A DNA stretch of 63,808 nt, the filler included, from Welwitschia mirabilis (Eukaryota), in the NCBI GenBank assembly GCA_051453625.1. It is 5 parts of one record of this genome, joined end to end, with 100 filler letters (N's around TTAATTAATTAA, not from the genome) between each part and the next. Parts side by side here need not be neighbours in the genome. Positions count along the whole stretch, not along the records: positions 47,719 to 61,064 come from JBOZIK010000001.1; 4 more parts are not named here. The stretch is one strand, 5' to 3'. A program made the translations under genes and the position numbers. The notes under the pieces are model-generated. The model saw nothing but the letters and a program-made list of their open reading frames with translations. It did no database searches and had not been told where the DNA came from. Below, one piece after another: positions 1-57,373 of this stretch; position 1 is the stretch's first letter; each line of letters opens with the position of its first letter.

Positions 1-870
1 TGAGTATTGTTCCAAAAGATCCTATTATCATCTATGGCTTAGCTATTTATATTGAAAACCTTTTAGGGCTTATTACATTTGAAATGTTCCTCCAACAGCT
101 ATAAACAACTAGAAAATAGCTACCTAATGGCTACATAATGGGTACATAATGTTTATAAAAATTTTATTTCTGCTCCGTTCAGTTAATCCCATAAAAATCC
201 GATCGATCTCATGTGGTACCATAATTTACATAGGTCACCTAAGAGAGAAATTTGGTCATCCTAATTTCTTACAGCTTCCTATCTAATTAATCCCATCTGA
301 TCTAATTGACCCCAATCTAGTCTCCCATAGTTTATTTAATCACCCACTCCTCTGATAAAGAACTTTCCAGTTTCCTATATTGAGTCTGATCAACCCCTTC
401 AGGTGTTTGGTCTACCCCATGATAATTGGTTCAGGCATACCAGCTACATAGTGTTTAGGTCTAGTCAACTCCATCATAGGTCTAGTCGACCTCTTGTCAT
501 TCAGTCTAGGGATACTATCTGTCAAGCTCTTAAATTTGGTTGAATCCATTCATATTTTATCAACTTCTTTTTATTTGGTTCGAGAATAATGGTTCTCGAG
601 GTTATAGATCTGGTTGACCCTATCAAAATCCGGTTAACCCCTCTAAATGTAGTTCACTTTTCTATCTACTTCAAGTGTGGTTGACCCCTTGAAAATCTAG
701 TTCACCCCATCTTGAGATAAATGAACTAATAAGTTTCTAAGCTTAGAATTTGATCATTTTAGTTCCATCTTTTAACATAAAAATAAATTAACATCTTTTG
801 CATAAAATACACAAAATTTGCTATATAAAAAAAATTATTTTGACATCAATTGGTAAAATATAATATAACA
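1..870 (-). repeat. 3' LTR (partial, runs off the window start) of SIRE-like Copia element A
   Basis: Colinear with 20640-21506 and 21560-21942. The minus strand begins TGTTATA at 870, immediately after the purine tract AAAGGAGGAGAT (871-883). Rich in degenerate GGTCGACC/GTTGACCC palindromes. Confidence 0.85.
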
Positions 871-1465
871 ATCTCCTCCTTTGACATTGATGGCAAACAA
901 TACTTAGTTGTGACACACTTAAAACTCATAGAAAAACTCATATAAAAGTCCCCCTTACAAAATTCTTGTTTGTAAAATAATAATCCAATTTGAAACAAGT
1001 GAAAGAATTTTGAACAAACAAATTTTGTGTTTTGAATGCAACCAATTTAATATAAATATTTGAGAGTTTAAAGGGCATAACTTTATGATAGACATAATGT
1101 GATCCTAAACATTGATTTAACATTGAATCAAATGATATAAATTTTGGTTCATTTCCAAATGTTATAAAGATTTTAAGTTTTTCAAGTTAAGTACATATAA
1201 TAGCATAAGAAAGCATGCTTGACATATATAATTTGTGAAAGATACAATAAGTTTTAGGATACCAAAATAACAGACCAAATGACACATGATTTTATGATAA
1301 AATAGAAAGTTGCATTTCATTAAATATAAGTGAAACATTACATGACTAACAAGAAAAAATTACAAAGTAAAAGTACTCATCAAGAGCATACAAATGGACT
1401 CATAAAAGAAGTTTAGTAATACAACTAACTCTTCCCCTTTTGACATCAATGACAAAGGAGAGAAC
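871..1465 (-). other. Multi-PPT 3' region of element A
   Basis: Several purine tracts on the minus strand: GTCAAAGGAGGAGAT at the LTR border, AAGGGGGAC at ~948-956, and GTCAAAAGGGGAAGAG with an inverted-repeat partner at ~1429-1462. Multiple PPTs are a known Sirevirus signature. Confidence 0.7.
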
Positions 1466-1526
1466 ACAAAACATAATCTAAAAAATTTCAATCTGACTCC
1501 TCTTCTTCTTTTTCTTCTTCTTCTTT

Positions 1527-2532
1527 TTATTCTTTTGAGTTTTCATCTGATTCTTCTTTATCACCTCTTATGTGTGCTGAACTAGTGGCTTTTGATGAAG
1601 TGTCAGTAATATCATATTTAGTTACAATGAAAGCTTCCTTCATATGTTTAATACAAGAGTCAATCCATCTTAGATATGAGAGGGTCTCATGAGGAAATAC
1701 TTCCTTTGATGAAGGAAATTTTGAATATTTCTTAGAGGGGATATAAATATAATGCAAGACAAGGTTGCACACCCAATGGGTGCCATAGGCTAAAGGGTTT
1801 CCAACTTCAAATGAAAGGTAATATGAAAGTGACAAAAATGCTTATCATAAGCACATAGTAGGATAAAGCCCTAGTTTTGTAATACTCTAGATCTAAAACC
1901 ATATTTTTCAGTATTATAGCAGAAGCATCTATAGAATGCTCAATTCCTACAAAATACATCAGATATGCTCGATAACAAGAGGCCTCATCATAATGGTCAA
2001 CTAAGGGCAAGAATTTATAAGTAAAAATTAAATGAATAAAGTAGTATTTTGGAGTTAATAAAGAAGTAAATAAAGTATGCTTCCAAGTATGCATCTTACC
2101 ATAGAGCTCCCTAGTAATAGCAGGCTTATCTTTCATGGTGTCCTAAAGAGGCTAAAAATATTCATAATCCCTCTTTAGAAGATCATTCAGCTCTGAAATG
2201 AAGTTAGCTATCAATCTTATCCACTTCCCTAGAATGAGGATTTCAAAGGTTCTAGTGTAACGATCAAAAGAAGCATTACAATAAAACATTCTAGTAAGAA
2301 AAGGATAGGCAAAACCAGAAACATCTAAAAAGTGATCAAAACTCTAATTTCTCAGGAGTTGGATAACTTCCTTGAGCTTTAAAGTAGCTACATATCACTC
2401 CTAGCACACTACATCTTTCTTAAACTTCTCAAAAAACATTTCAATTTAATTCTCTGACATTCCTTAGTAGAAGATGGACGGATCCCTAGAGGAGGCCTCC
2501 TTTGCTTTTCTTCTTGATGAGCTTTCTACCAT
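1527..2532 (-). pseudogene. Degenerate env-like / extra 3' ORF of element A
   Basis: Hand translation gives FLDVSGFAYPFLTRMFYCN (YPxLxRxFYxN motif), which is shared with 14903-15178. ORF fragments at 1807-2136 and 1527-1835 end in an acidic tail. It lies between the coding region and the multi-PPT. Confidence 0.65.
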
Positions 2533-3066
2533 TTCTAGACTTTGCAATCATACAACACTAAGAGAAAAGCACTAGATATAGAAGCAGAGCTCTAGATCTT
2601 AAAGGAAAGGCACTAGATATGAGATCTAGAGGGGACTAGAACATAATGAAATTGATTTAGGGTGCTCTCTTTTTTATAGACTATAAGAAATAGGGCAAAA
2701 TAAAGAAAGAAATTGGGTTTACTAACTGTACTTCCACATTGTAATATATTAAGTTCCATCAATTGCTTGAGGTTTCAATCGACCTGTCGAGATGAGAGTC
2801 AATAATATTGGAAGCAGTCTAGGCAATCAAGCTTTCAGGACGGTCGACTGATCACATCCGGTCAACCGAATCATAAATTCGGTCGATTACCCTATAATCA
2901 GCCAAGGAATGGTGACTGAACACCTAGATCATCTTCATGATTAACAATTAGATAACAGACTAGGGGTGTTACATCAGAATTTTCCAGAAAATGTTCAGTT
3001 TCATTAAGATTTAGTCTAACATTATAATTTTCATAAAATAATTGGTCAATCAATTTAGAATCTACT

Positions 3067-4135
3067 TGTTGAGAATCCATTCTCATTAATTAATTTAATG
3101 AGTTTTTGTAATTAGTCAATTATGTAGAGATTTTCTAGCACCGGGTGACCAATTCTTATAACTGGGTAATCAACTTGTTAAGAACTATGAAACTACTTCA
3201 GGTTTGGGCAACCTAACCTATCATACCAAGTGATCAAACTGATACATCAAGAAGAAGAATGATTGCAAAATAGGCGATCGAGTGTATCTTACTAGGTGAC
3301 CATGTTGATACATTAGGAGGAAGACCAGTTCTAGCATAGACGACCATGAAAATATAGTTGGATGACCCAGTTAGAACCTCTATGAAAAATTGAGATACAA
3401 GCAGGTGAACATGCAAAAATATAAGGGCAACCACATTACAATATACTGAGTTCAGTCTTATGACAGTACAAGCAACTGATCAATTATAACCGGGTGATTG
3501 CATGGCATTCTATAAAATCTCAAGACTCATAACAGAAAGGACGATAGAACAACTTAGTTATGGGGGACTGCATGTTTTCTAGAATCTATCCTCACAAGAT
3601 TGACCAAGTTATTAAAGTAAGGGAAATTGAATGAAGGTCGATCACATACTTTCATAAGGGTGATCGAATGCTCATCTATTTTATACTAGTTAATCTATGA
3701 CAAATAAAAATGATCAAAGATAAAAAATAAGGGTGACTGGATACTAGGAAAACTGAGTTTATCTCCAGGTTGATTGTATGTAATACAAATGTAACTGTTG
3801 CATTTTTAATGGTTCATCAAAAATTATGAAATATCACAACAGTTCACTTCCCTTATCTCTTTTTTTAATACCAACAAATAGAAAAAAACAATAGTCATAC
3901 TATTCTATTATTAAATCTAAATAAGCTGTTAGTTCAAATTTATATTTGAAGCTATCGTTGCATCTTTTATGAAGAAGAGATTACTATACCATTTAAAGAA
4001 AATCTATGTATTAGTGCATCTATCCTACTTCCTTTCTTTTATGGTTGAGGATCAGTCTTAAAATCCTCTAATGTTGGAATAGGTTTTTGGTAAGCCTAAA
4101 AACTAATCTTGGGAGTTAATATATGCTAACCAGGG
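3067..4135 (+). repeat. LTR B1 (3' end lost in a gap)
   Basis: Starts TGTTGAGAATCC. Colinear with 16186-17310 up to the N run at 4136. Confidence 0.85.
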
Positions 4136-4235
4136 NNNNNNNNNNNNNNNNNNNNNNNNNNNNNNNNNNNNNNNNNNNNNNNNNNNNNNNNNNNNNNNNN
4201 NNNNNNNNNNNNNNNNNNNNNNNNNNNNNNNNNNN

Positions 4236-7200
4236 CTTGACTCGAGTCATAGGTCTTCTAAAATGTAGCAGTGGTCATTTCATCATTGCAAGTTCTTAGA
4301 GAGTCAATTCTTGATACAAGAGAGTAAAGTGCAAGAGGATCTTTGTAAAAGACAAAGTGCAAAATGCAAGAGAGTGAAGCACAAAGATAAAATGTGAAAT
4401 GTAAAGAATGAATTTAAGTCTATCTTTATACTATTTTTTAAGGTTTTTATCAAAACCAATGATGTCATACTGCAAGCACATCAGGGCACATTTTCCTAAG
4501 AGAGGCCTTTAGGAATTTGATATGATAGCTATGGGAACTCCACTAGGGTGTTAGTTGGCCATGATGTATAGGTTTCTACTCCTCTAATAGGAGTTATACT
4601 TACCTCATCATGGAGAAATAATTATCATTTAAAGGCTATGAGATCAATGCCTCTCGTATCATTTTCAAATTCATTTTGTATGTTGTACTTTCACATGATT
4701 ATTTTACTTTTTTGGATTCTAGTATTGTTTTGGTATGTGAGATAATGAGTTTATGTTTGAATATCTTTTAGTCTTATCATTTATTATTTAACAACATTAA
4801 ACATATTTGACATCAGCATAATCATTGCCTATTTAAATGATATTTTCTAAGTTTTTACATACTATCATGCATTATTAATTAGGTGATTTATGATTTTTAC
4901 CAAGGTTATTTGTTACATTAGAAATTATGATCGATAATCAATATTCTTTGTGTTCCTAGTTGTCCATTTATGCTTTTCTTGTTTATTTAGCTGTTTTATT
5001 GAGTTTCAAAAAGTTATTTCCATACTTTTTTAAGATAATATTTTAGATCTAATCATTCAAAAATTTTTGTTGATATTAATTATAGTTTTTGTTCATAAAG
5101 GTTGTTTTTCTTTTAGCACTTTCTAAGAGGTGATGATGCTACTTCATCTTTTGTGTTTCATTCCTACTTTTACATGTTGACTAAGTTCAAGCATATTTGA
5201 GGATCTCTTCTAAGCATTACTTCTTTTATTATGGTCCTATGCTTCTCTTCTTGAGTTCTTTCAATATTTGTCTCTCATGATCATTGTTTTTGAGGATGAT
5301 TTTTTACTTTTAATCATCTTCCTGACTTTCTAATAATTTTCTGATCCCTAATTATTCCTACCTTGCTTATTATACTTTTCCTTGTGTTTACTATTTTTCA
5401 AAAACATCTCCTTTGATGGGCATTGTTCCATGTCTATTGTCCACATGATAGAATAGAGAAAAGTGGTCTTTTTGGTATTTTTACAATTTAGGACATCTTG
5501 GTTCTCTTGTGGAGGAAGGAGAAGGTAGGACAACTTTTTGAGCTACTTCTAAGATATCAAACATAATTTTTAATTTTAAGGATCATTTTTGAGCTTTTCA
5601 TGATACATACTTGTGATGAGACTATTTGGATCTGATTCCATATTACTTGTATAATTTTTCGTCATGGAAATTATCTAGCAAGATCACAACAACACACTTA
5701 TAGAGTTTTGTAATAGGTATGATTTAAAATATCATGGATAATGGCATCAATTTTATGATAATTCTTCATGTTTCAGCCCTCATAGATTGTTTTTTTAGTC
5801 TCTTTGACTATTCATACATATCATTTTTAGTTACTACTACTTTGATTATGCATACATATAATCATTTCTCACATTGTCATTATTATACCTTATGATTATT
5901 ATTATTTTTAAACATTTCATCATTATCTGGTAATGTGTTAAAAACTTCAAGTAGAGGGCTAATGAAGATTTCAGTACTTAGATTTTGTAATCATGTTTTA
6001 GGTATTTGAGTTTCATTTTAATTTTACAAGATCTGTCATTGCTATAGTCATCCCGATGAGATGCAAGATGACATATCCATTATGCATCCTACAGAGGTAT
6101 GGTATCAGTGAATTAGTTTTTAATTTTATTCGTACATGATAAATAGTTTAAAACTTAATTCACATTTTCCTTAGTTGTTGGTTATCTTGGTCAAATTGGC
6201 TTGCAATCTTATTGATCACTTACTTTGTCAAGGACTAATAAGGCTAAGTATAGGGATATGTTACAATGCCAATTTATAGGATTCTGATAGGGTATTTTGA
6301 GTACTTTTGTAGAACATTTATATAGGCTTATATAGAATTTTGATAATTATGAAGAATTGATGGGATGATCACTAAAACATGTAAGTATGGACATATTTAG
6401 AGGCATATCAAGAATATTCTAATATTTTATGTCTTAACGAAAAGATTAATAATGGAGAAGACTGATTTCTATTAAGCTGAAAAGACAAAGAGGCTTGTTG
6501 TCCCCTCTGTCATTTCCATGATAGTTAGGATGATAGTATTATTAATATGGAATGAAGCTATGGAGTTGACTACTATGTTTAAAGCTGATGAATCATCTCT
6601 TCTTATAGAGTATCATCCCTAGTGTCATCCCCATAATATATAGGACAGCAATTATTTTATATAAATAAAAGTGAATCATCTTTGTAATGGGTTCATGTAG
6701 CCCATGTGGGTTACTAGGGTTTCTTTTCTAACTTCTAGGATTTTTCTTTTAGAACTTCAATGTAAAACTATAAATATACTCCTTTTTCTTAACTTCCATT
6801 TTCATCTTTTGTAATGGCTTTTTTTGTGATGAAATATTAAAGTATAACAGATCCATTCATTAGGTGTACAGAAATGATTTCTTTGCTATTGTGCTAAGTA
6901 TCCTCTATTGAGGTGTTTCTACTTTATTATAATTGAATGTTAAATTAATAATTATTTCAAGAACTCTTTTCACTTCTATTGTGTAAACCTTCATTACGAT
7001 TATGTTGATTATGATTTAGTGATTACTTAATAGTTTATCTAAATTATAAGAGAAACCTTTGTTAAGGTTGAAATTATTATTTTGGATTTTACATTGCATT
7101 TCATTTTATTCCCTTCTATATTTACATTTATTTACATTTTTTTTAGTATATCTAATAGCTTTTGTTGATTAGGGATAAGTGATAACTTTTTCTAATTGAT

Positions 7201-7348
7201 CTAAGTTATAAGGGTTAATTATTTTGGCAGAAGGATTCGAATTCAAATAGACCCATTAAACTTGCATTTCATCTAATTGAATTCATCATCATTTATCTTA
7301 TATTATATTTGCATTACTTATTATTTTATTTATTAAAGAAAGAAGACT
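4236..7348 (+). mobile_element. Athila-like Gypsy fragment: 3' non-coding region, PPT (~6228-6258) and truncated LTR (6259-7348)
   Basis: TTGGCTTGCAATC...TTTGTCAAGGACTAATAAGGCTAAGTATAGGGATA|TGTTAC matches the reverse complement of the PPT/LTR junctions at 24114, 31242 and 39813. The motif at 4530-4560 recurs inverted at 43570-43602. Confidence 0.65.
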
Positions 7349-8550
7349 TGTTGAAAACCTATGGTCGTTGATTAATTTAATGAGTTTTTATAGTTAGTCA
7401 ATTGTTAGAGATTTTCCAGTAGCAGGTGATTGAGATAATACATCAAGAAGAAGACTGGTTATAAAATGGATAACCGAGTTTATCCTACTAGCGACTGCAC
7501 TGATATATTAGGAAAAAAACTAGTTCCAGAATAGGTAACCATGATAATCTATTTAGTGACCTAGTAAGAACCTCTATATAAAAAGTGGAGCAAACGTGGA
7601 CAACCATTCAAAAAGATAGGGTGACCACGTTACAATCTACTAAATTCAGTCTAATGATAGAATAAGTAACCGATGAGTTATAAATGGGTAATCACATAAT
7701 AACCAATGAATCTTTAGTCTCCTGATAGCAAGGATGACCAAACAAATTACTTACAAGCGACCACATACTACCCAAAATATACCCTCACAAGATTGATCGA
7801 GTCATCAAAGTAAGGGCAACTAAATAAAGGTCAATCACATAACTTTATAAGGGCAATTAAACATGAATCTATTTTATACTGAGAAATTTGTAATAACCAA
7901 GGTTAATCGAAGATAGAAAAGAAGGATAACTGGATACCCAGGCAATCAAGTATTGTATTAAGATCAATTGTATGTAGTACAAATGTAACTGTTACGTTTC
8001 TAACAATTCATTAAAAAGCATAAAATCTTACAATGGTTCACTTTCCTTCTCTTAAATGATTACCTTGTATATTTTCATTATTTAAGCTTCCTTCAAATCA
8101 AAAGAAAGGCACCTTTTTATCACACCAACGAATAGAAAAAGAAAAACTGTTATACCATTTTAACATCGTATTTGAACAATCTATAAGTTTAGATTTTTAT
8201 TTGAAGATATCATTGCATCTTCTATGAAGAAGAAATTGTTGCATCATTGAGATCAAATCTGTGAATTTGTGTATCAATCCTACTTCCTTTCTTTTATTGT
8301 TAAGGATTAGCTTTAAAATCCTCTAATGTTGAATAAGGCTTTTAGTAAGCTTGAAAATTAATCTTAGGAGTTAATATATGCCAGCTATGGATCGAAGGTT
8401 TAAGGGGTTAAAGGATGATGTATATCCACCATTAAAATACCTTGCACCTATGTTTTGTACTTTCATTTCTTTGATTTTCAAGTTTTTAAGAGTATAGAAA
8501 TTGGATTTAAGTCCTATCCACTTCCCTTTATGGTCAATCCACTATTTTTA
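7349..8550 (+). repeat. LTR B2 (5' LTR of the coding unit)
   Basis: Starts TGTTGAAAACC and is colinear with B1 and B3. Ends CTATCCACTTCCCTTTA...ACTATTTTTA, followed by a decayed PBS. Confidence 0.85.
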
Positions 8551-8564
8551 ATTGGTTTTAAAGC
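8551..8564 (+). other. Degenerate tRNA-iMet primer binding site
   Basis: ATTGGTTTTAAAGC versus consensus TGGTATCAGAGC, directly after the LTR end and ~50 nt before gag. Confidence 0.65.
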
Positions 8565-8615
8565 AAAGTTAAACAATAAATCCTAATAGATCTTTGCTCC
8601 ATTCAACTCTAGAAA

Positions 8616-11600
8616 ATGAGTCAGTCCATGGAATAAAAATTTGTCACAAGGCCTTTCTTCTTTGATGGAAGCAACTATGGTTATTGGAAGGCAAAGATGA
8701 GAGTCTTTGTTTAATTTATTGACTTTAAAATATGGGAGTCTATTACTAATGGATATTGTATTCCCACTGTGCAGGATCCTGTAACTAAGTTAGCTACTCT
8801 AAAGAGCAAGGACAAGTGGATATAGCAGTAACTTACAACTTTAAAGGACTAAATGCCATATTCTATGTCATAGGTCTAGTAGATTTTAAAAGAGTAGTAA
8901 ATTTCACCACTACTAAAAAAGCTTGGGATATCTTAAAGACAGCTCATGAGGGAACCAACCTAGTAAAGCTAATAGATATTGTAAATTCTATGCGTACTTA
9001 GATAAAATTATTGAAGAATCAAGAGTAGTTCACAAAGCATTAAGATCTCTACTCAAAAGATTCAAATCCAAAGTAATTGCCATTGAAAAAAGCAATAACT
9101 TGAATATTATAAATATGGATGAAATCCAAGGAAATATTCACACATTTGTACTCAAATTTAAAAAATAAAAGAAGAAAAGTATGGCCTTGACTACTACTCA
9201 TGAAATCCCTGAGATCAAAAATGGATCTGACCAAGAACTAGAAAGAGATAATGAAGTGGCTCTTTTAACCAAAAAATCTAGATTCTTCATGCAGAGATAA
9301 CAAGGTGGAGGTAAATCTAGGATATTGCTAAGAAGGAAAGAGGAAGGACAATGATAAATTCAATGATATTATTACAAAGCCTTTGGTCACACATCAAGTA
9401 TCTGCCCAAAACTAGAAAAGATAATAAAAGAAAAGAAAAGAAAGTCTTGTTAACAACATGGAATGATAAAGAGAGTGAGAGTGAATAGAACTCAAATTCA
9501 GAACATGGTGGAATCTCTCTCACAGCCATTATAGATAAAAAGGTATGCTCCTCTCCTATCATTCATTCAATTGTTAGTAATGATACATTAAATGATATAG
9601 AAATGAAACTTTATTTGGAATGTTAAAATCTAACTCATAAAGTAAATAATCTTAAAAAAGAAAATAAAAGTCTACTAGATAAGCTTGAGAGTCAAGAAAA
9701 GGAAATTAAACATCTAAAAAATAACCTTGCCTCAATCTCCAATTGGATTAAAGAAACTGTGTCTAGAAAATTGTTTGCTAGCTTATTTAATTCTTATAAT
9801 AGTTCATATATCAAGCCTTTATCTAAATTAAATTCTAAATATCCTTTACCAAATATCACCTTCCATTATTACAACAAAAAATGTCATTCAAATATTGATT
9901 ACATTCTTTGCAAAAGTTGATTCCCTCACTCCATGTTAGGATCTAAGTTTACTTTTTCTCCAAAATCGAATCAATATTTGAGTAACGAAAAAAAAAATGC
10001 CTAAGATGGATTCTAAAATCCATAAATAAAATACTATTAATCCAAACTACTTTAAAAGCAACTAATTATTCTTGCTAGTATCGTGATAGTGTTTGCTCCA
10101 GATATATGACAAGTGGCAATTCAAACTTCATCAACTTCAAGGAATACAATGAAAGAGAATTAACTTTTGGGGACAATGGAAGACCTAAGATTGAAGGCAT
10201 TGAAAGCATTAGTGGAGGTGAGATATTTAATATTCACAATGTGTTATTTGTAAAAGGATTTAAGCATAATTTGTTAAGCATTAGTGAAATTTGTAATAAA
10301 CATCATAAAGTATTTTTTGATGAAAATAAGTTTATTATGAAACATAGTAAATCAAATCAACTTTTACTTGTAGAAAATAGACATGAAAATGTATATTATG
10401 TAAATCAATCTAATAATTTTACTTGTTTTTCATCTCATACTCAAGAAGACAACATATGACATCAATGTTTAGGTCAAATTAGTTTTGATTCCTTGAATAA
10501 ATATTATCATGATGAAATAGTTAGGGGTCTTTTAAAAATCTCTTTTTCTCCTAAAGGACTATGTGATGCTTGTCAAAAAGGGAAACAAAGTAGAATGTCT
10601 TGTAAAAGAATTAGCAATATCACAACTAGTAAAGGTTTAGATTTAATTCAAATGAATTTGGTTGGGCCTATTCAAACTGCTAGTCTATTTGGAAAAATAT
10701 GTTTTCTTATTATGGTTTATGACTTTTTTAGATTCTCGTGGGCAACTTTTCTTCATGCAAAATCTGATGCATTAGAAAATTTCATTAAAATTTGGAAGAA
10801 ACTTCAAACTGAAAATGGATATATAATTAAGAAAATCCAAAGTAATCATGGTAGAGAATTTAAAAATGAAAGATTTAAATTGTATTTTAACTTGAATAGA
10901 ATTAACCATGAGTTCTTAGCTCCTAAAACCCCTCAAGAAAATGGGATAGCTGAAAAAAAAATCAAACTTTATTAGATATGATAAGAGTTATGTTAAAATG
11001 ATAAGAATATTTCAAAACATTTTTAGATTGAAGAAGTGAACATGGCTTGTCATACCCAAAACTTCTAAAACTTTTTATGAGCTTTGACAAGGAAAGAAGT
11101 TGAATATATCTTATTTTAAAACCTTTGGAAGTAAGTTATTTATCCTGAGAGATAGAGAATAATTAGCAAAATTTGATTCTAAATTTGATGAATGAAGCTT
11201 TTTAAGGTACTATCAATTAAGTAGAGCTTATAGAGTGTTTAACAAATGTACTCTACATATGAAAGAATCTATTAATGTAAAAATCCATAACGTTTTAGAT
11301 ACCTCAAAATCCATTGAACTTAATGAAGATCTAATTCATTCCTCTTCTATCAATCAAAATGAAAATAACTCAAAAGATAAGGCAATCCTAGAAATCAAAA
11401 AACTCAAGGATCATCCTCTAGACTCTATTATTGGAAATGTTCAGTAAGGCATTATTACTAGAAACTCTCTTAAAAAAATTAGTGCTCATGTTTATTTTCT
11501 ATCTTAAGTGGNNNNNNNNNNNNNNNNNNNNNNNNNNNNNNNNNNNNNNNNNNNNNNNNNNNNNNNNNNNNNNNNNNNNNNNNNNNNNNNNNNNNNNNNN

Positions 11601-44099: not shown

Positions 44100-46090
44100 C
44101 TACGTTATTCAAGATTGCATTAAAAGGTTTTTCATATATTCTTAACCTTTATTCATTAACTTTCAAAATCTCCTTAGTTTCTAAATTGAAAATCTTAATA
44201 GATCCATTAGAATGTACTTTTTCCTATAAGATAAGGGCCTAATCATTTAGATGTTAACTTGTAATGTAAAAGATGTACTCTAGTATTATATTAAAAGATA
44301 AGTTGACCTGGTTCAAATTTTTTATGAAGTAATTCTATCATGTTTGATCTTAAATTAGCCTTTGTAAATGAATTAATGATGTATAGCATGAGTACTTTTT
44401 TTATCAAGATGATCAGGTTGGGCTAATCTATGTTTAAAATTCTTACGAAAATCTACAAGATTAAGTTGATGAAAAAAAAGGAGTTATAACACACATCAAC
44501 AGGTAAAACATAATTTTTTTCTATATATAAGTTCATAAGGTAAAAAATCAAGAGAATTATGCCAAATAGTATAATAATCCCAAAGAACATCATTAAGATT
44601 AGAAGCCCAAGATTTCTTATTAAGAGAAATAAGATTTTGTAGCATTTACTTTATTTATCTATTTACATTTTTTGCTTGACTATTAATTTGTGGATGATAA
44701 GCACAAGCCACTCTATGTTTAATTCTAATGGATAAAAGAAGTTTCCTAAAATGTTTATTAAGAAAATAAGTTCCTTAGTCACTAATGATAGTCTTATAAA
44801 ATCCAAAATGTTGAAAAATATGATTTCTAAGAAATGTATAAATAATTTAAGCATCATTTATAGAAGTAGGAATAGCTTCAACTCATTTAGTAATATAATC
44901 AATGACCACTAAAATGTAGTTCTTATTATTAGAAGGTGGTTTAATAGGACCTATAAAATTAATTTTCTAATAATAAAAAAGTTTACATTCAAGAATAGAT
45001 TTAAGGGATATCTTTTAAGAATGAATAAGACAACAATAATATTAACAACCATCACACCTTCTAGAAAAATCAAAAGAATTTTTAAAAATACTAGGCTAAT
45101 AAAAAATAGAGTGAAGGATTTTCATGGTTATTTTTATCCACTAAAATAATCTTCAAAAATACTACTATGACAATGATGAAGTATTTCTAATTTTTCCCAT
45201 TTGGACACACATTTTTGCATGATTTTATCTTTGCACCTATAATAAAGATGTAGCTCTATCCATTCATAATTACCAATTCTATGGAAAAAGCGTATTCTTT
45301 GATTATAAGTCTAATGTTATGGTGTTTGCATGATAACAATGTAATTAACAATGTTAATATATCAATGAGGAGGATAAATAAAAGATATGACAAAAAGTTG
45401 TTCATTCTAAAAAGAATCATTAATTATAATATCGTTAAGAGAGGGAAAAAAAATGACAAATGATCTGCTACACTATTATGTTTTCCTGCTTTATCAATGA
45501 TGGTCAAATTAAATTATTACATAAGGAGGATCCATCTAATAAGTCTAGCACTAAAATAGTTCTTGGTAATAGGTATTTAATTATTACATAATGTATATAA
45601 ACATTCATATGAAATCCTAAAAGATAATGTCTAAGTATATCAAAGAAAAGGATTATTGTTAACATTTCTTTTTCTATAGTAGTGTAATTCATTTGAGATT
45701 TAAAAAAAAGTTTTACTATGATTAAATATAACCTTAAAATCATTTTCATATTTTTATCTAAGCATCCCATCCACAGCAATATTACTAGCATCACACATTA
45801 ACTCAAAATTTTTATTCCAATTAGATCCTATTACAATAGGTATAGAAGAGATTTTATCTTTATGTGTGTTAAAAGTAAGCTAATAAGATTAATTATAATC
45901 AAATTTAGCTTCTTTTTCAAGTAAAAAGTGAAGGGATTTATAAATTTTAGCATAATGTTAAATAAAATGATGATAAAAACTACAATGACTAAGGAAAGGT
46001 CAAACTTGTTTTACATTTGTTGGAGGAGTTAGGTTTTTAATGATACTAACTTTTTTAAGGTACATTCTCATTTCCTTATTAGAAATGTGA
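44100..46090 (-). pseudogene. Athila-like Gypsy pol pseudogene (RT C-terminus, RNase H, integrase)
   Basis: RNase H NYTTIEKEMLTII..RHYLLG. Integrase INFIGP..NYILVVIDYITK*VEAIP (~44870-44965). C-terminal KVNE*RLRIY (decayed KVNGQRLK.Y). Order is RT-RH-IN. Confidence 0.92.
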
Positions 46091-49450: not shown

Positions 49451-51617
49451 AATCTTACAAGTAATAGCTTGTGTTCTCTTTCCAACAACATATTGGATCT
49501 AGAGGAGGCAATTATAGAGATTAAATTCTTGATTCATTAAGTTCCACATATGACACGTTTGCAAGAATGAAAAGCAATATTAGCGAGACATACAAAAAAA
49601 TCGCCATAACCTTGTTCATAAGGACAGAAGCCAAAAGCACTATGTTAAGTTGTTATGTAAGACCTAAGAACATACTCAAGCTTCAAAGCCCAATTCATGT
49701 GAGAGGAGCTAACAATTTTCTGAAAAAAGACTTTGCATTGCGATGGAGTCAAGAAAATACTATGTTGAACAATATGAGGAGGAATGCCACATAAATCTTT
49801 GTGAGTTTATGTAAAGGCTTGAACATTCTTTGTTAACACATTCACTACTTGAGCTTCTTCATGTTGAGATAAAGTTGATGATATAATGAGAGGTTTTTGA
49901 GAGGCTTGTGGATGTAGATGTATTTCATATTGAGAGGTAAATCTTTGAAATTTAGCTTATTAGTTTGAAGTTCCACCCCTTCTTCTGATAGGAGGTTAAC
50001 TAGTTGTTGCAAAATTCTACTTCTTTCCAAATTAAACAATGGCTCTTCATCCAATTGTGAGTCCTCAAAGTTTTCCTTAATAGGGCTTCATTTAATTGGC
50101 ATGAGTTGGGGGAATTCAAAGAGGCTTGCATTGCTGTGAAGCCAATTTGGCCCATTTGACAATGTTGTTGGAGTGTGATTTCAGATGTCTTTGACAGGTT
50201 TCCAAGCAAATCAGGAAGAATTTGAAGATCTATCAGGATGATCACATGAAACATCAATTTCTGATATCATGGACCTTGTCCTGACATATTTCAAACTCCT
50301 CAACTTATCCAGAGCATTAGCGGCCCAACTCAGATTGTTAAGTGATGATCAAGAGGCCAAAAGATGCAAAAGAAGTATCGTCCATTCCATCCACTGGACG
50401 TTACTTAGAAGATGACAAACCAAATACATAAATAAGAAGATCATTTTTTGTTGATAGTCGTCCACCTATTCATTCACATGAATTTAGAGGATGACAACCA
50501 CTTATAAAGCAAAATTTGAAGATGGCTCTAAAGGATGACAAAGTATACCATCAAATTTAAGCTCCTTCAGAAGATATTGGGATGTGTCAATAAACTTAGA
50601 AGCCATGATCAAAATTAGAAGAACACCCGATTTTAATCAATGTACTTGTGAAGGATGAAAAAAGGTCAATTTTAGCATAAGAGAAAATCCAGTTGTAACC
50701 ATCAAAGTAGAGAAGGTTTCAAAAGGATTGTTGTCCTAGTCATCCTCCGGATGAAATATAAGAGGACAATAATCATTGTAGCTATTGTCCACTTGGTCAT
50801 CTGGACGATATTCAAGATGATTAGTAGGAACAGAAGAAACAGAAATGTTAGTTTTACAACTGATAGTTGTCCACCCCGTCGTCCGGACGACACCAGACGA
50901 ATGACACTCAACTATTACACCAAGAAGGCACATGGAGGAAAAGCAGCAGTTAGAAAAGAAGATCACATGTTGTCCACCCTATCATCCGGATGATACACAG
51001 GAGGGCGACAACTCTAATGAGTATAAAATGTATTTCATCCATTATGAAATCAATGATATGATTGCTCACAGTCCATTACTACTTCTTAGTGACTCTAACC
51101 ATCAATCTGAAATTATAAATACCCCTTTGAGTCCCTCATTTCTCATCTTTGATGCATCGACTATTCTGGTGACAAATTGGAGTTCAATTGAGCAAGGAGT
51201 CCATCTAGCTTAGGAAAGGAGCTTACCTTGGTGTTAAGCTATGTTTCTGTTTGGATTCAGAGATCCCAGGCATAGTGGAGGCCCTTGAAACCGAGTCATG
51301 AGGACCTTGCAGGGAACGTGTGCATTGATCAATTAAACTAGCTCATTATTTACATTAGAAAAGAGGGGTTTAAACATCCTCATCTCATAAAACAAAATAG
51401 GACAGGATGGGCAAGTGGGAAAGAAATATAAGGGGGTGGTTCTAACAACCACTTGAAATGGGAAGGGTTGGCTATTAAAAAATGGAAAATCCAACAAACT
51501 CCCCCTTGATGACCAATCTAAGAATTAGATTGCCATCACAATTAAAGTATTAGCGCATGCTTTGAGCATCGCAATCCACATAAATTTACTACGTAGCTAT
51601 GGAATGACCATTGCAAA

Positions 51618-51692
51618 GTGGACTAACCATGACAATGTGGACTAACCACAACAATATGGACCAACCATGACATTGTAGACTAACCATAGCAA
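51618..51692. repeat. 19-bp tandem repeat, about 4 copies
   Basis: GTGGACTAACCATGACAAT and variants. Confidence 0.85.
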
Positions 51693-52203
51693 GGGACAAA
51701 CCCAAGCAATTTTCTTGTAAAAACAACGTCATAAAAAGTGTCCCATACCACTTTTCATAACATCATCTTTATATGAAATTGCAATATTTGTTGGTTCTGA
51801 CAAGCCAAAGGATTGGGACACACTTAGGAAACGTGACACATCCAACATTATATGTGGACTTACCACAACTAGAGGACCAACTCAACAAAATAAGAAGGTG
51901 CCTTCTTCCATTCCAAGCCACTTTCACATCAATTTTAAAAATAATAATAATAATAATATGAGTGTCCCCTAAATACAAACTTTGCTTAAAAACACAAATA
52001 AGATCCAAACTACAAATCTTAATATCAATAAATATGTTAATGAGTTTTGAAAGGCATCAAAAGGGTAAGAAGAAAGCCTTATAAAGTATAGTAAAGGTGA
52101 GATAGCCAACATGACACAAGGACTGTAAGAGGAGGCTTAGCCCTGTGCATGATAAGACTGAATTTATTGCTTAGATTGCTTTCTATGTCGCTCAAGCACC
52201 GCC

Positions 52204-52516
52204 AAAATGACTATAGTAGCATCCCAACACAAAATGAATGACGATGCTCACAAGTGGCATCCCCACGCACATTCTTTTCCCCGCACCAAAAGTCCATTCT
52301 GTTTTACAAAAATCTTTCTGGCTTGATCTCGCCCACCTTTTCCCCCACCTTTGGATCTATTTTGATTGCCCAATAATTTACAATGATATGGGCATCCATT
52401 GGTGTCACATAGTGCCCGACTTTGTAGCTTTGCTTAGCTCTGTGAGGAACCAGCAATGGAGTTGAGAAAGGCTTCTAAAAGAAAACGATATAGCACAGCT
52501 GCCTGATATGACATTT
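52204..52516 (-). pseudogene. Cytochrome P450 C-terminal fragment (CYP71 clan, CYP76-like), captured and pseudogenised
   Basis: Minus translation TPLLVPHRAKQSYKVGHYVTPMDAHIIVNYWAIKIDPKVGEKVGEIKPERFL*NRMD, then after a frameshift FGAGKRMCVGMPLVSIVIHFVLG. PERF is at 52310-52321 and FxxGxRxCxG at 52261-52290. Confidence 0.9.
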
Positions 52517-53949
52517 CTAGACTGCTTTTGTATGTAGAGTCACCACTTTTGTCAAAAGACGAGCAAGTGGATCGCAATTGCAGAGGTGGTTCTATCTAAG
52601 GCGGTGTCCCTGCTAGCGCACAATCGCCTGCGGCCTTAGAGTTCGACGTTTTTGCTAGCTAATGGTTCTTTGAATCACAGGCTTCTTTGTAGGCATCATC
52701 AGACCCTTAGATTCTTGTTGCTTATTGGATTTCAAATTTGCAAGCTTCGCCCTAAATTCTTGATCACCAGCGTGGCCCTGACTCTTCCTCAAGCCAATTG
52801 TAGGCATCGCCAAGATTGAAAACATATTAAAACCATCATATAAGACAAACCAAATGTGAATTGTAGATCAAAACCTCTATGGAATAGGTAGAAAGATTCT
52901 CTACAACTTCAATGTAGAATTTATTTCCCTGTTTCTCCCATTTCGTCACTCTCAAGAAACTAGTCTAGGGTTTGGCCATGTAAGGATCGACTCCAAGGCA
53001 GCAATGGTACTAGTCCTGAGTGCACGATCCAAAGCAGAACACATAACAACGATGTGTAATAGCCTTCTTGTTGCAATCCTTCTCACTCTCCTACAAGATC
53101 TCGAGGCTAGCTATTATGTTACTCTTGAGACCTGCTCCGATACCATTTGTTAGGATTCAGAGATCCCAAGCGTAGTTGAGGCCCTTGAAACCAAGAGTCA
53201 TGAAGACCTCTCAGGGAGTGTGTGCATTGATCAATTAAACCAGCTCATTATTTACATTACAAAAGAGGGGTTTAAATGCCCTCATCTCACAAAGCAAAAT
53301 AGGAAAAGATAGGTAAGTGCAGGAGAAATATCAAATGATGGTTCTAACAACCACTTGAAATGGGAAGGGTTGACTATTAAAAAAAAGGAGAAGCCAATGG
53401 TTTCCTCCATTAAGGAGTGACTACTTCTAAGTGGATGTAAGAACATTGTGATTAATAAAAAATCATTTTGTTCTTCTAATTTCTCTCTTATGTTCTTTAT
53501 ATGTTATGTCAAAATCAAGTTAATTACGTAAACGTTAATTGTGATTTTGATATAGTGTATAAGAGTCAACTTGGGTGACAAGAAGTTGGTAAACTTGGTT
53601 AGTGTTTGCATTTAGGCTTGCATCTCATTTTTGCATCCATTTATTGCATGTCATCCATCATTGTGTTTTCACTCATTTATCATTCTGAAATTAGAATAGA
53701 AAATCATTTCAATCCCTTTCTGATTGAAGCAATTTTCCAAAAGTACTTTCGAATTCCTCTCTAGAGTACGACATTTGGGATGACCTCCTATACTAGTGTG
53801 CTTTGTATGCATTAGATAATTAACATTGCAGGTTATCATTAAAGATCAATACTTGAAGAAAAGAAGCACACAACACACACTCTAACATGCATCAAGTGAA
53901 AATCATGATGGAAATGACTAGAAGGGGATGAACTGGATTGATTTAAGAT

Positions 53950-56859
53950 AATGATTTCTTTAGTAGTATGCAGATAAGCTTAAAACCTTGAACCATTGAG
54001 TCTCCTATGTCAGAAATTTCATCAATCACTTCAACTTCCTCTACTGCATCAAAGACCCTAACATTAAATTTTGATTTCCAAAGGCTAAAGTTATCATTCT
54101 AGTTCGAGTGTATATGATGCAATGGGTTGTTGCATAAAAGGCGCTTCCTAAACTTAGTGGATATCCTCCTCCTTTGGCTACTTGAAGAACTACAAAATTG
54201 GAAGATAAAAACCTTTATCAATTTGGAGAACAAGATCCTTGATACTACCTACTAGTTTACCAATTGAAGTGTCAACCAATTCAAGAATAATATCAGTTGG
54301 TCGTATTCTTCCTTCAAGTTGCAACCGTTTAGCTATGTGAAGGGGCATGACATTCACATTTGCTCCTACATCAATAAGGCACTTCCTTACCTTTTTACTT
54401 CCCTCCAAGGTCACACTAATTATAGCTACTCCTAGATCTTTGTATTTATCTTTGTATTTAGGTGCCTCACTGGCTAGGAATGATGTTGTACTTTGGGCCA
54501 TAAAGACTTTCTTTAGTGTGGCTCTATTCTTTCTTCTAGTAACTAAATTTTTCTACACCTTATCATATTGATTGCTATCTTTAAGGATTTTTCAAAGAGG
54601 AAGGTTAATGTTGACTCCCTTCATTAATTCTTTCAAGTATTCATCGTATACGATGGTAGGTTTCAAACACTTCATCCAAGGCATAGGCTCCACATCAATT
54701 TTCCTTTTACCATTATCGTCAGTTGTGGAGACTGTAGATTCCTTATCAACTTTGCTTTTGCCCTTACTGTAGGATGTGGATGAGGTAGGTTGGTCTAGTT
54801 GGGTTGGCGGATAAATTTCCTCAACCTAATCTTCACTCTTTTCTTTTTCCTCCTGTGTATGTAAGTAGTTGGGATTAGTGTTCCTCCCACTTCGAGTTAC
54901 AATGTTGTAGATCTTCACATTGTTTTTTTTTGCATAAGGTTGAGAGGGAATGGTCCTTTGCTTTCATTTATCACAAAGAATTGCTTGTTGCATGATACCT
55001 AACATCTTCTCCATGTTTTTGTTGGTTTCTAGATTTTCCTTANNNNNNNNNNNNNNNNNNNNNNNNNNNNNNNNNNNNNNNNNNNNNNNNNNNNNNNNNN
55101 NNNNNNNNNNNNNNNNNNNNNNNNNNNNNNNNNNNNNNNNNNTGTGTATGTAAGTAGTTGGGATTAGTGTTCCTCCCACTTCGAGTTACAATGTTGTAGA
55201 CCTTCACATTGTCTTTGTTTGCATAAGGGTGAGAGGGAATGGTCCTTTGCTTTCATTGGTCACAAAGAATTGCTTGTTGCATGATACCTAACATCTTCTC
55301 CATGTTTTTGTTGGTTTCTAGATTTTCCTTCACCATGTTTTCTAGAGTAACTTTCAACGTGTCCTGTTCAAATGAATTATAGGAATTANNNNNNNNNNNN
55401 NNNNNNNNNNNNNNNNNNNNNNNNNNNNNNNNNNNNNNNNNNNNNNNNNNNNNNNNNNNNNNNNNNNNNNNNNNNNNNNNNNNNNNNNTGGTTTCTAGAT
55501 TTTCCTTCACCATGTTTTCTAGAGTAACTTTCAACGTGTCCTGTTCAAATGAATTATAGGAATTATCTCTTGAGTAATAAGGCGTTGAATTATTGTAAGA
55601 TACCTTGGAGGATTATTAGGAAATTTTGAAATCAAGTATTAAAGGCCTTCTTAAAGTTTCCTGTTGGTGACGGATTTGTTTGAGCATTGAAGGCACACAC
55701 TTCCTCATAAATAATCTCCTTACACGTTGATAATGCAGGGCATTGTTTAGTTGTATGCTCATTCCCTTTGCAAAGACAACAAGCAACAACATGCGTTTTG
55801 GATGTGGAAGGTTTGTCATGATCCTTCACCACTTTAGATCTTTAAGATTTGAAGACACTTCTTTCAAGGTTCAACTAGAAGTTTCAATTAAAGATAGAAC
55901 ATCAGGAGTGGATGAAGTAGATGGTGAGTAGTCCACAGCCTTTAAAATCTTTCATTAGTTCCCTCATTGTTTTAGTTCGAGGTCTTGATTTAGTGGTGGG
56001 CCAACTTTTACTCATTTCACGTATTTGTTCTAACTTTGCCCAAGTAGTTGTAGGTTCCTTATCAAAAATGTTTTCCCCACTAGCAAAGGCAACTATTTGT
56101 CTAGTACATGAGTTTGGGTCCCTCAAGGACGTAACCTACAACCTAATAGGGTTGGAATTTGTTACTAGCATTTTGAGTAACATAGTCAATGAAGCATTCA
56201 AATGCTGCATAAAAATCCTCCTCATCCTTTTGTTTAAATCCACTAACTTGCTTTCTTAACTCCTGATTTCGTTGGCTCGTCATATACCTCCCTATAAAAG
56301 TTATGCACATATCATCCCAAGAGCCGATACTTTGGTTGGGCAACAAATTGAACCACATCTTAGCTTTCTCTCTAAGGGTTAAAGGGAAAACTTTCAAAAA
56401 AGTTCTATCACCTACATTTTTCCTTGCAACTTTTGCTATTTGCTCAATTTCTATTAGATAGCTATAGGGAACCTCATGACCATGTCCATGGAAAGTTGGG
56501 TAGATAGACAGGTTTCGAATTTCGGCATCCTCTCCGTCTGGTAGTTGAATGGGATTGTTTGATCGATTCTTGCGATTTAAAAGTAGATCCCTTATGGAGA
56601 TAGTTGGAATATTGGGAGAGCTCATTGAGGTATTTAAAGCTGACCCTTGTTGAGAAAAAGGTAGAAAAGCAAAGGTGTCCCAAGTTTCCTTGCCCAAGCC
56701 ATGAATTGTGGTATATTGAGAGCTAGCATGAGCTTCTTCGTTTTCCAAATAGAATTCAGAAGGAGGGGAAGTTTTAGAGGAGTCTTTCTGTGCTTCATGT
56801 TGGTATTGAAACAGCCCTTCTTTGATGTTGTCTCTCATTAATCTCAAATCATTGTTCAA
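53950..56859 (-). pseudogene. Athila-like gag-protease pseudogene (element E)
   Basis: ORF 56143-56859 (YPTFHG, FPLTLREKAKMWFNLLP, SWDDMC..F). Cys/His knuckle CCLCKGNEHTTKQC. Protease KYKDLG..CLIDVGANVNVMP (54190-54501). Confidence 0.92.
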
Positions 56860-57373
56860 AACTCAAGGCATATGAAGTCATGGAATGATGTGCCTATTGT
56901 TGTTAGACAAAACCACACAACAAAAACTAGCACATGTAATTCACTCAATGCAAAGCGTAGGAGTACACAAGCCTCAATCACCAAGATCGTATAGGATACG
57001 TCTCTCAAACTTCCTCTAGACGCAAGGTGTAGGAGTGCACAAGTCCTCAATCATCACTATCATACAAAGTGGTATTGGAAAGACGTCCAAACGTAAGGTG
57101 TAGGAGAACACAAGGTTTCAATCACCAGACTTGCATTGGTGAGTATTATTCAAAATCAAAATATAAAAACAATGTAATTTAAGAAGAGAAAAAAACTATG
57201 GAAAGATAGCGTAATCGAACTCAAAAGAGTTTGTAGACCAATCTCTTCCTTAATTCAATACCATGTTCACCAAAACACAAACAAATAGAACAATCTCAAC
57301 TTACTTGTAGCTTTGGGTAAAGGTCTTTTTGTCTCAAAGGTCCTGCTTGGCTTCCCAGGTAATGATGCCAAAA

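Follow-up and report, generated by a model that had tools for sequence, protein, structure and literature searches.

A small, old LTR retrotransposon of Welwitschia mirabilis with a decayed cytochrome P450 fragment in a mosaic interior

One way in which exon shuffling and pseudogene or small-RNA loci can come about in plants is the capture of gene fragments by LTR retrotransposons, already described for TRIMs and for Bs1. Transduction by the Katydid-At1 TRIM in Arabidopsis was reportedly described by Witte et al. in 2001. Documented LTR captures are few in the accessible text of three sources and consist of Bs1, Katydid-At1 and 30 TRIM elements in two legumes (PMC13317346, PMC4717578, PMC8616336). 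These sources, as excerpted, disagree on the cargo of Katydid-At1, which is a cytochrome P450-like gene fragment in one (PMC13317346) and a nonsense-mediated decay gene in another (PMC8616336); the likeness to the element described here lies in a TRIM-type element reported with a host gene fragment. According to the available portion of PMC4717578, the fragments in TRIMs derive from a single gene up to more than two. The gene-fragment TRIMs in that portion, for example GmaRetroS15 of soybean (Gao et al. 2016, PMC4717578), resemble the present element as small non-autonomous LTR elements with short LTRs and a TSD, and in an interior to which at least two transcribed host sequences contributed, with a UTR-like piece and a coding fragment among the contributions. 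They measure 1,172-1,449 bp against 2,152 bp here and are exon-only, whereas homology in the Welwitschia element starts at an acceptor-like motif, and the cargo of the present element is by comparison low-copy and heavily decayed. Bs1 of maize likewise has an LTR retroelement interior with several transduced host gene fragments, but in the accessible text these form, fused with gag, a hybrid ORF that undergoes both transcription and translation (PMC13317346, PMC8616336); the present element is without gag, without an open frame and without reads on its P450 part. Among DNA transposons, Pack-MULE, Pack-CACTA and Helitron elements are also mobile carriers of host gene fragments, often with introns (see also PMC13317346).

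The element occupies positions 51248-53399, minus strand, of a 63,808-nucleotide stretch of W. mirabilis DNA (the window, in which all coordinates are given) and is 2,152 bp long. It is flanked by exact copies of GTTTC (51243-51247 on the left, read directly, and 53400-53404 on the right), a 5-bp target-site duplication within the 4-6 bp range of the LTR retrotransposon definition. The 3' LTR (249 bp, 51248-51496, minus strand) starts with TGTTGG and ends with AACA, and the 5' LTR (252 bp, 53148-53399, minus strand) starts with CATTGG and ends with AACA. Three of the four termini therefore fit TG...CA, the TG at the start of the 5' LTR being mutated relative to its partner. The two LTRs are direct repeats with 85.6% identity over 250 nt (blastn), and in a MAFFT alignment, which has 3 gap columns, 37 of the 249 aligned sites carry substitutions, for a K2P distance of 0.17; no further LTR copy was found in the window by blastn. 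The PBS TGGTATCGGAGC (53134-53145, minus strand) is located 2 nt after the 5' LTR end and agrees at 11 of 12 positions with the plant tRNA-iMet PBS motif TGGTATCAGAGC, as that motif appears in the accessible part of PMC7215508. It is the sole match to this motif at one mismatch or fewer on both strands of the whole window, with 0.21 expected by chance. The PPT AAGGGGGAG (51499-51507, minus strand) sits 2 nt upstream of the 3' LTR and is followed by TT and then by the LTR start TGTTGG. No hallmarks of Pack-MULE, Pack-CACTA or Helitron elements were found at this locus. Elements of those classes are bounded by TIRs or by Helitron ends and lack LTRs, a PBS and a PPT.

The outer boundaries were independently visible in empty sites. 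Contigs of two DNA runs (14 in X1 and 6 in X5) join 51242 to 53400 and skip 2,157 nt, with five letters at the joint that fit either side, and the loose ends recorded ahead of 53400 (97 and 75 records) are similar in sequence to 51213-51242. The element is nested in a high-copy repeat, and since other copies of this flanking repeat are present without the insert, it arrived as one unit: the 2,152 bp were inserted together, making the 5-bp duplication. An earlier note, made from the sequence alone, had described a complete 2.15-kb element with an LTR pair, an iMet PBS, a PPT and a GTTTC TSD, and this description was borne out, including by the empty-site contigs. Its statement that the element moved with its cargo also stands, insofar as the P450 piece lies inside the unit that integrated.

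The interior is a mosaic. Next to the PPT lies a very high-copy repeat of about 390 bp (51482-51869, minus strand; tandem family D1/D2), with a summed contig depth of 723-8,828 and a 19-bp tandem array at 51600-51694 (minus strand). Beyond it, depth is low and continuous over a block of about 1.2 kb (~51870-53068). This block holds an AT-rich 3'-UTR-like tail (51870-52081, minus strand, depth 65-131) that follows the P450 frames, the P450 fragment itself, and a low-copy segment of about 430 bp (52640-53068, minus strand) that is 80-95% like an expressed RNA without the LTR and PBS. An (ATT)n run occupies ~51930-51955 of the tail, and positions 52600-52640 are G+C-rich. No poly(A) remnant was seen after the tail when the sequence was read. 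Summed contig depth was 38-290 over the 3' LTR and 18-40 over the P450 part. The cargo is low-copy, with about 2-5 contigs per place, and LTR-like sequence is several-fold deeper, so that the earlier proposal of a multi-copy family with the same cargo found no backing. A second copy with LTRs joined to the same cargo was not found among the contigs, and the only LTR-like contig among those listed (X5) does not continue into the element interior. A diverged contig does run colinearly through 52383-52716, across both internal boundaries, and a contig 88% alike spans 51851-52095. The contigs across these interior junctions are 82-88% alike and share them with the element, so that one or more further copies of similar age must have the arrangement too.

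The decayed P450 fragment (52082-52474, minus strand) corresponds to about residues 364-490 of a CYP71-clan enzyme of about 500 amino acids, which is the final ~130 codons or about a quarter of a gene. It is distributed over three minus-strand frame pieces, at 52307-52474 (PLLVPHRA...KPERFL, then TAA), 52195-52356 (FGAGKRMCVGMPL...) and 52082-52210 (C-terminal ...NKFSLIMHRAKPPLTV). PLLVPHRA, VNYWAI..DP and KPERFL share one frame, and FGAGKRMCVGMPL is in another. PERF and FxxGxRxCxG are the motif definitions of P450s, and both are represented here, as KPERFL and the heme-binding FGAGKRMCVG, translated in different frames. A repeat search also returned a 12-bp tandem duplication within the fragment (family D4, 52329-52352, minus strand), which translates as KVGEKVGE. 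The earlier note had read a P450 3' half in the sense orientation, interrupted by one stop and one frameshift. The motifs and the Pfam match uphold the P450 identity, and cargo and element are on the same strand, but the extent is limited to the last ~130 codons, and the damage comprises a deletion of about 10 codons, in-frame stops and no fewer than two frameshifts. A complete P450 enzyme has an I-helix and a K-helix ExxR, and the fragment has neither.

The Pfam search that the note had proposed gave a significant match to p450 (PF00067) at 52307-52474 on the minus strand (E 5.3e-7, 29.2 bits, above the cut-off of 22.8), with a second match at 52195-52356 on the same strand that fell below that cut-off (E 0.0025, 17.1 bits). 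A custom HMM built from 19 full-length relatives returned E-values of 3.2e-21 and 6.6e-6, plus a marginal colinear third piece. An exhaustive protein search with the 56-aa P450 piece produced 132 matches; a word-indexed search with the same piece among longer proteins produced 54 candidates, none of them significant. No other P450 was found in the window by tblastn. The nearest full-length relative, P0011, has 60% identity over 52 aa. In a comparison with PDB entries, P0011 was closest to the CYP76AH ferruginol and sugiol synthases (369 and 357 bits, versus 245 for the next plant enzyme). By the nomenclature rule, a protein belongs to CYP76 when its overall identity to members of that family is 40% or more. 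The CYP71-clan/CYP76 flavour noted earlier thus appears reasonable by way of P0011, the fragment's own ~130 decayed codons being non-discriminating. The P450 match is a transposon-borne pseudogene fragment.

Homology to P450s begins abruptly. A frameshift-aware alignment to P0011 reaches residues 317-489, but shuffle tests were passed only from 52474 down, and no significant P450 homology (I-helix, ExxR) was found upstream of that position. Alignments to the I-helix-like and still earlier parts of P450s, which seemed plausible on inspection and in one frameshift-aware alignment (P0026), were rejected. Tested protein by protein, the upstream sequence gave z of 2.7 or less in 17 of 18 cases, with a single outlier (P0103, z 4.5). 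A three-region test gave mean z of 0.36, -0.06 and 0.02 with isolated outliers (P0088, z 5.5 and 3.5), and pooled tests against 78 P450 slices gave z of 0.7 (41 of 200 shuffles reach the observed value) and -0.86 (162 of 200). The best tblastn match of the 132 matched proteins to 52475-53147 had an E-value of 0.017, and strands were inconsistent. Directly before the first P450-homologous codon lies a strong splice-acceptor-like motif, TTTTCTTTTAG (52475-52487, minus strand). Such sites number 25 in 57,760 minus-strand positions, so that one would lie no more than 6 nt to either side of a given position with a probability of about 0.006, in a test that was chosen post hoc. An intron at the PLLVP site would not be usual, since, of 15 library P450 fragments starting within 30 aa of the motif, 10 have a K-helix (...RLHP or a close variant) that continues unbroken into PLLVP. 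One intron occurs in 83 genes (81.4%) of one species in the accessible text of PMC8493724; on where the conserved CYP71-clan intron lies, the literature search gave intron counts only.

Expression was assessed in two RNA-seq runs, and the number of reads on the P450 part was zero. Reads of both runs (X15 and X18) cover 52646-53130 at a depth of 2-20 and break at 53068, where 16 and 25 reads continue into unlike sequence on which they concur (agreement 0.93 and 0.85). There were none in 53131-53227, and depth was at most 0.52 in 53228-53324, within the 5' LTR. Read strand in 52646-52839 showed no consistent direction, X15 and X18 leaning opposite ways. Since no protein homology and no Pfam match were found for 52640-53068, it is probably a second host-derived, non-coding piece. 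A 70-aa ORF at 52658-52867 (minus strand), considered as SERF-like, was discarded with no Pfam match and no homologue. RNA reads less than 95% alike were also present on the PPT-proximal repeat at 51482-51869.

Based upon these observations, the locus is probably best explained as an old non-autonomous element with a low-copy, host-like block of about 1.2 kb, the host sequence having been acquired at the RNA stage and left to neutral decay thereafter. The layout would be a short PBS-proximal leader, the low-copy block at ~51870-53068 and the high-copy PPT-proximal segment, the block carrying, in the element's sense orientation, the last ~130 P450 codons with their 3'-UTR-like tail and, upstream, the ~430 bp that resemble an expressed, apparently non-coding RNA. 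The progenitor may have gained these host sequences by a switch of template to host transcripts packaged with it, or by way of a chimeric read-through transcript. The composite RNA, primed by tRNA-iMet, would then have been reverse-transcribed and integrated with the proteins of an autonomous element acting in trans, with presumably neutral decay since insertion (LTR K2P 0.17). Several points count against this account. The abrupt P450 start at 52474 after the acceptor-like motif is not predicted by capture of a spliced mRNA, TRIM captures in the available part of PMC4717578 being exon-only, and it weakens the earlier note's template switching in the version with a spliced transcript; the missing poly(A) remnant and the lack, among the contigs, of a second copy with LTRs joined to the same cargo were also counted. 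With the motif exactly at the homology start, an unspliced or genomic origin fits at least as well as spliced-transcript capture. The corresponding alternative, possible though unlikely overall, is that the cargo was taken unspliced or as DNA in one contiguous genomic block (terminal P450 exon, upstream intron end, 3' flank and neighbouring transcribed sequence) and not from processed mRNAs, which could have happened by pre-mRNA read-through or by recombination or repair with genomic DNA. The missing upstream homology favours it, as the I-helix and ExxR are normally well conserved, and so do the colinearity of the diverged contig through both internal boundaries and the continuous low-copy depth. 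Set against it are the unbroken K-helix in most library fragments, the G+C-rich stretch at 52600-52640, which is unlike plant introns, with no clear donor site seen, and a T-rich tract that could be a remnant of F-R-L codons; the TRIM and Bs1 captures in the available portion of PMC4717578, moreover, are exon-only.

Two further readings would detach the P450 piece from the retrotransposon. In one, it came after integration of the element, through gene conversion, with a nested mobile element or as filler during the repair of a double-strand break, and was never moved by the retrotransposon. A patchwork interior with segments of very different copy number would suit such a late entry, and an element of this age has had time for secondary events. 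A repeat search, however, found no TIRs, flanking duplications or other hallmarks beside the P450 piece, which the earlier note had named among the signs of a secondary insertion; contigs only 82-88% alike keep the same junctions, and the cargo has the element's orientation, all of which makes a late entry very unlikely. The other reading, in which no single element exists and two unrelated solo LTRs of one family flank a P450 pseudogene by chance, could draw on the 15% LTR difference and the 5' LTR start that is not TG, but can practically be set aside given the exact 5-bp duplication, a PBS and a PPT each at the correct inner LTR edge, and the empty-site contigs that skip all 2,157 nt at once.

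It is doubtful that what the element mobilised was an unspliced gene piece, consisting of an intron end with the terminal P450 exon and the adjoining 3' flank, and linked to a second transcribed sequence of the host. If true, the locus would depart from the exon-only pattern of TRIM and Bs1 captures and would suggest that small LTR elements can draw on pre-mRNA or read-through transcripts; the locus is a test case for whether captures by such elements can include intron sequence. The present copy adds a well-delimited case to those described, with boundaries confirmed by paralogous empty sites and a mosaic interior. Being old, broken, low-copy and silent in two RNA samples, it carries little functional weight by itself, and its main use is in annotation, where the P450 match at this place ought not to be entered as a gene. 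The few copies that bear the cargo might, as a further possibility, supply small RNAs directed at CYP76-like genes.

The element encodes nothing usable. Its two strands contain 39 stop-free pieces 30 aa or longer, of which two match Pfam p450 and none matches a gag or pol family, in agreement with the earlier note; the gag and pol coding regions of an autonomous Ty1/copia or Ty3/gypsy element are lacking. It is a genuine small plant LTR retrotransposon, non-autonomous, old and long dead. The label TRIM-like, also used earlier, fails on size: TRIMs were first defined as shorter than 1,000 bp, and 225 of 289 subfamilies are below this length in the accessible part of PMC4717578, against the 2,152 bp measured here. 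Minus the ~1.2-kb low-copy block, the element would measure about 950 bp. Short LTRs and the lack of coding sequence do agree with a TRIM, the LTRs of 249 and 252 bp being borderline given that they are under 250 bp in 197 of the 289 subfamilies (PMC4717578, same part). A tRNA scan of the window returned 0 genes, and metagenome scans with LTR patterns returned 0 loci. LTRs of the Cassandra TRIM carry 5S rRNA-derived sequence according to the available text of PMC7215508, and none was detected in 50500-54200 by an Rfam E-value scan. The only matches in that scan were two sub-threshold plastid 3'-UTR matches, both located in the flank.

The element occupies 51248-53399 on the minus strand (2,152 bp); it holds up as a genuine element with exactly defined ends. 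Its LTRs are direct repeats at 51248-51496 and 53148-53399 that share 85.6% identity across 250 nt; no further copy of either was found elsewhere in the 63.8-kb window. The PBS TGGTATCGGAGC (53145-53134, minus strand) begins two bases past the upstream LTR end ...CCTAACA. The plant tRNA-iMet PBS motif TGGTATCAGAGC, as given for Cassandra elements in an excerpt of PMC7215508, has this site as its single match in the window with at most one mismatch, both strands included (0.21 expected by chance). A polypurine end, AAGGGGGAG (51507-51499, minus strand), precedes TT and then TGTTGG, where the LTR starts; GTTTC is duplicated on both flanks (51243-51247 and 53400-53404). The complete LTR element reported in the earlier note was confirmed by the LTR pair, PBS, polypurine end and GTTTC on both sides. 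The 5' LTR starts with CATTGG rather than TGTTGG, one among many differences between LTRs that are 15% diverged. Alignment of the pair with MAFFT gave 37 substitutions (27 transitions and 10 transversions) in 249 aligned sites plus three gap columns. The resulting K2P of 0.169 indicates an old insertion, dated to about 6.5, 12 or 39 million years at substitution rates of 1.3e-8, 7e-9 and 2.2e-9 per site per year, a wide range. Differences among copies are mostly of two kinds, C>T (193 of 652 places in the DNA run X1) and G>A (176); an excess of this kind is expected for methylated repeats.

Contigs of two DNA runs (X1 and X5, from Logan) were placed on 50900-53800 at a likeness of at least 80%, together with the raw reads from RNA runs X15 and X18; X1, X15 and X18 represent organism A and X5 organism B. 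The flanks (50900-51247 and 53400-53800) are a high-copy repeat with a summed contig depth of roughly 400-7,000 in the two DNA runs. In many other copies of this repeat, 51242 is joined straight to 53400 (14 contigs of X1, six of X5), a joint that skips 2,157 nt and at which five letters fit either side. Loose ends before 53400 (97 and 75 records) look like 51213-51242. These contigs are paralogous empty sites, so the 2,152 bp and a 5-bp duplication represent one insertion into a pre-existing repeat. The empty sites also rule out two unrelated solo LTRs around a pseudogene.

Both strands of the element together yield 39 stop-free pieces of 30 aa or longer, and none of them matched a gag or pol family, in agreement with the earlier note, which had also proposed a Pfam p450 search. 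Two of the pieces match that family: 52307-52474 (minus strand; E 5.3e-7, 29.2 bits, above the cut-off of 22.8; positions 338-389 of the 462 in the profile) and 52195-52356 (minus strand; E 0.0025, profile positions 403-432). All the P450 motifs first read from the sequence are present in the translations. An exhaustive phmmer search with the 56-aa P450 piece matched 132 proteins at E ≤0.001. The closest full-length relative, 60% identical across 52 aa, is P0011, a library protein of 501 aa. When 19 full-length matches were combined into a profile, it recovered both pieces (E 3.2e-21 and 6.6e-6) along with a third, colinear, C-terminal and marginal piece (52082-52210, minus strand; E 2). No other P450 similarity was found in the window by tblastn with 13 of the phmmer matches. 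The P450 piece aligns twice to each of P0001, P0003, P0007 and other top library matches, which look like two tandem partial P450 C-terminal halves and probably represent gene models of other genomes that were fused or duplicated. Among solved enzymes, P0011 is closest to ferruginol synthase (369 bits) and sugiol synthase (357 bits), both of them CYP76AH enzymes; the next plant enzyme follows at 245 bits. The earlier assignment to the CYP71 clan, CYP76-like, is therefore a fair label by way of P0011; the fragment by itself cannot discriminate between P450 families.

The fragment is shorter and more decayed than had been supposed. In a frameshift-aware alignment to P0011, a TAA stop directly follows KPERFL, about ten codons are absent between PERFL and FGAG, and there are two frameshifts and one more stop, where a single stop and frameshift had been noted. 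A 12-bp tandem duplication (KVGEKVGE) is also present. Homology continuing through the I-helix and beyond, suggested by eye and in one alignment, to P0026 (another library match), was rejected in four tests. Local frameshift-aware alignment of 52596-52900 to 18 P450s, with 40 shuffles each, gave z ≤2.7 for 17 of them (the outlier, P0103, reached 4.5), and three sub-regions compared with 17 P450s gave mean z of 0.36, -0.06 and 0.02. Pooled K-helix and I-helix slices of 78 matches gave z of 0.7 and -0.86, the observed values being reached in 41 and 162 of 200 shuffles, respectively. With all 132 matches as queries against 52475-53147, tblastn gave a best E of 0.017 with inconsistent strands. Because these tests yielded no support for homology upstream of 52474, the captured "3' half" reduces to about the last 130 of some 500 codons, a quarter. 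The I-helix and the ExxR motif are absent, and the fragment cannot encode an enzyme.

The interior has a mosaic make-up. Across X1 and X5, in which single listed contigs are about 3-10 deep, summed contig depth is 38-290 for the LTRs, 723-8,828 for the PPT-proximal interior (51482-51869), 65-131 for 51870-52063, 18-40 for the P450 part and 5.6-66 for 52549-53130. The PPT-proximal ~390 bp thus belongs to a very abundant repeat, and LTR-like sequence is moderately repeated. About 1.2 kb, from roughly 51870 to 53068, is low-copy, with about two to five contigs at the places listed; the multi-copy family with the same cargo envisaged in the earlier note was not borne out, LTR-like sequence being several-fold deeper than the cargo. 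A 19-bp tandem array (51600-51694; four to five units of TGGACTAACCATGACAATG-like sequence) lies within the deepest part of the interior (up to 8,828), and RNA reads less than 95% alike fall on this region too. RNA coverage was taken from about one quarter of each run. No RNA reads fell on 51967-52548 in X15 or X18 (neighbouring bins ≤0.35), and almost none on the 5' LTR. Across 52646-53130 RNA depth is 2-20, with reads mostly less than 95% alike. These reads stop matching at 53068 and run on into a concordant sequence unlike the window (16 reads with agreement 0.93 and 25 with 0.85), indicating an expressed relative of 52640-53068 with no LTR or PBS ahead of it. This segment has no Pfam match and its longest ORF no homologue; it is probably a piece of a non-coding host transcript, and transfer could have gone either way.

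The element moved with this cargo at least once, unless the cargo came in later. Such late entry is unlikely: no TIRs, flanking duplications or other hallmarks surround the P450 piece or the block (the earlier note had counted insertion hallmarks of the piece's own as a sign of secondary insertion), and contigs only 82-88% alike retain internal junctions (X5 record 9, 52383-52716; X1 record 1, 51851-52095). The composite is therefore present in at least one other copy of comparable age, either an LTR-flanked element or the source locus. The sole LTR-like contig among 16 listed of more than 13,000 pieces (X5 record 11, 85% alike) does not run on into this interior, though the sample is small. 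We favour RNA-stage capture by a progenitor, as suggested by cargo that lies between PBS and PPT, in sense orientation, and comprises pieces of more than one transcribed sequence, as in published TRIM captures and Bs1. The progenitor would have taken up host sequence by template switching onto co-packaged host RNA or through a chimeric read-through transcript, after which tRNA-iMet would have primed reverse transcription and proteins provided in trans would have carried out integration. Of the host-gene transduction originally described, the empty sites support an insertion that included the cargo; transcript capture by template switching stays a proposal.

A rather improbable alternative is that the cargo is a contiguous genomic block, taken up unspliced or at the DNA level. 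The first homologous P450 codon is directly preceded by TTTTCTTTTAG (minus strand), which looks like an intron end, placed at the start of P450 homology; if it were one, the element would carry a terminal exon that had not been spliced. On the minus strand of the window, AG preceded by 12 letters of which 11 or more are pyrimidines occurs 25 times in 57,760 positions; such a site would lie within 6 nt of any given point with a probability of about 0.006, in a test picked after the site was seen. Against this, the K-helix (...RLHP or a near variant) runs unbroken into PLLVP in 10 of 15 library P450 fragments beginning within 30 aa of the motif, 52600-52640 is rich in G+C, and the T-rich tract could be leftover F-R-L codons. 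A-type P450 genes reportedly have a conserved single intron near the I-helix. The fragment would then lie wholly within the usual last exon, making an intron-loss test impossible. An excerpt of PMC8493724 on P450 introns gives counts only.

RNA-stage capture would make the element work like TRIM captures and Bs1. Excerpts of Gao et al. 2016 (PMC4717578) describe gene fragments in 30 TRIM elements of seven subfamilies, the gene-carrying ones measuring 1,172-1,449 bp and holding exons only. At 2,152 bp the element falls outside the size criterion, so "TRIM-like" does not hold as stated; its remainder without the low-copy block (about 950 bp, made up of the LTR pair, a leader of 79 nt and a PPT-proximal part of ~370 nt) would be of canonical TRIM size. 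No 5S rRNA was detected, so it does not belong to Cassandra. PMC13317346 and PMC8616336 both cover Bs1 and cite an Arabidopsis TRIM capture (Witte et al. 2001), whose cargo is a cytochrome P450-like gene fragment according to the former and a nonsense-mediated-decay gene according to the latter, a contradiction. Gene-fragment capture by such elements is already known, and this one is an ordinary, neatly documented further case; the original observation was confirmed and its interpretation upheld only in part.

The window is a repeat-rich gapped draft (26 N runs totalling 5,654 N, many of the runs exactly 44 or 100 bases long), so long "ORFs" across N runs are artefacts. Fragments of Retrotrans_gag (56146-56862, minus strand; E 2.8e-9) and RT_RNaseH (45507-45797, minus strand; E 3.4e-6) share a strand and flank the element on opposite sides, and the element may lie inside a large decayed Ty3/gypsy-type element. 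In the left flank (50729-51011) a 44-nt unit occurs in three diverged copies (61-70% alike): TGTTGTCC...CCGGATGA.... At 53694-53742, Rfam plastid ccsA-ndhD 3'-UTR models match both strands below threshold (29 and 22 bits against gathering values of 51.5 and 48.5), probably a chance hairpin of the flanking repeat. Transposase_32, a putative plant transposon protein, is weakly matched at 1807-2142 (minus strand; E 0.0022, 18.4 bits, below the cut-off of 45). Two adjacent open pieces at 10079-10975 (plus strand), with Pol_BBD, gag_pre-integrase and integrase core matches, are a Ty1/copia-type pol remnant.
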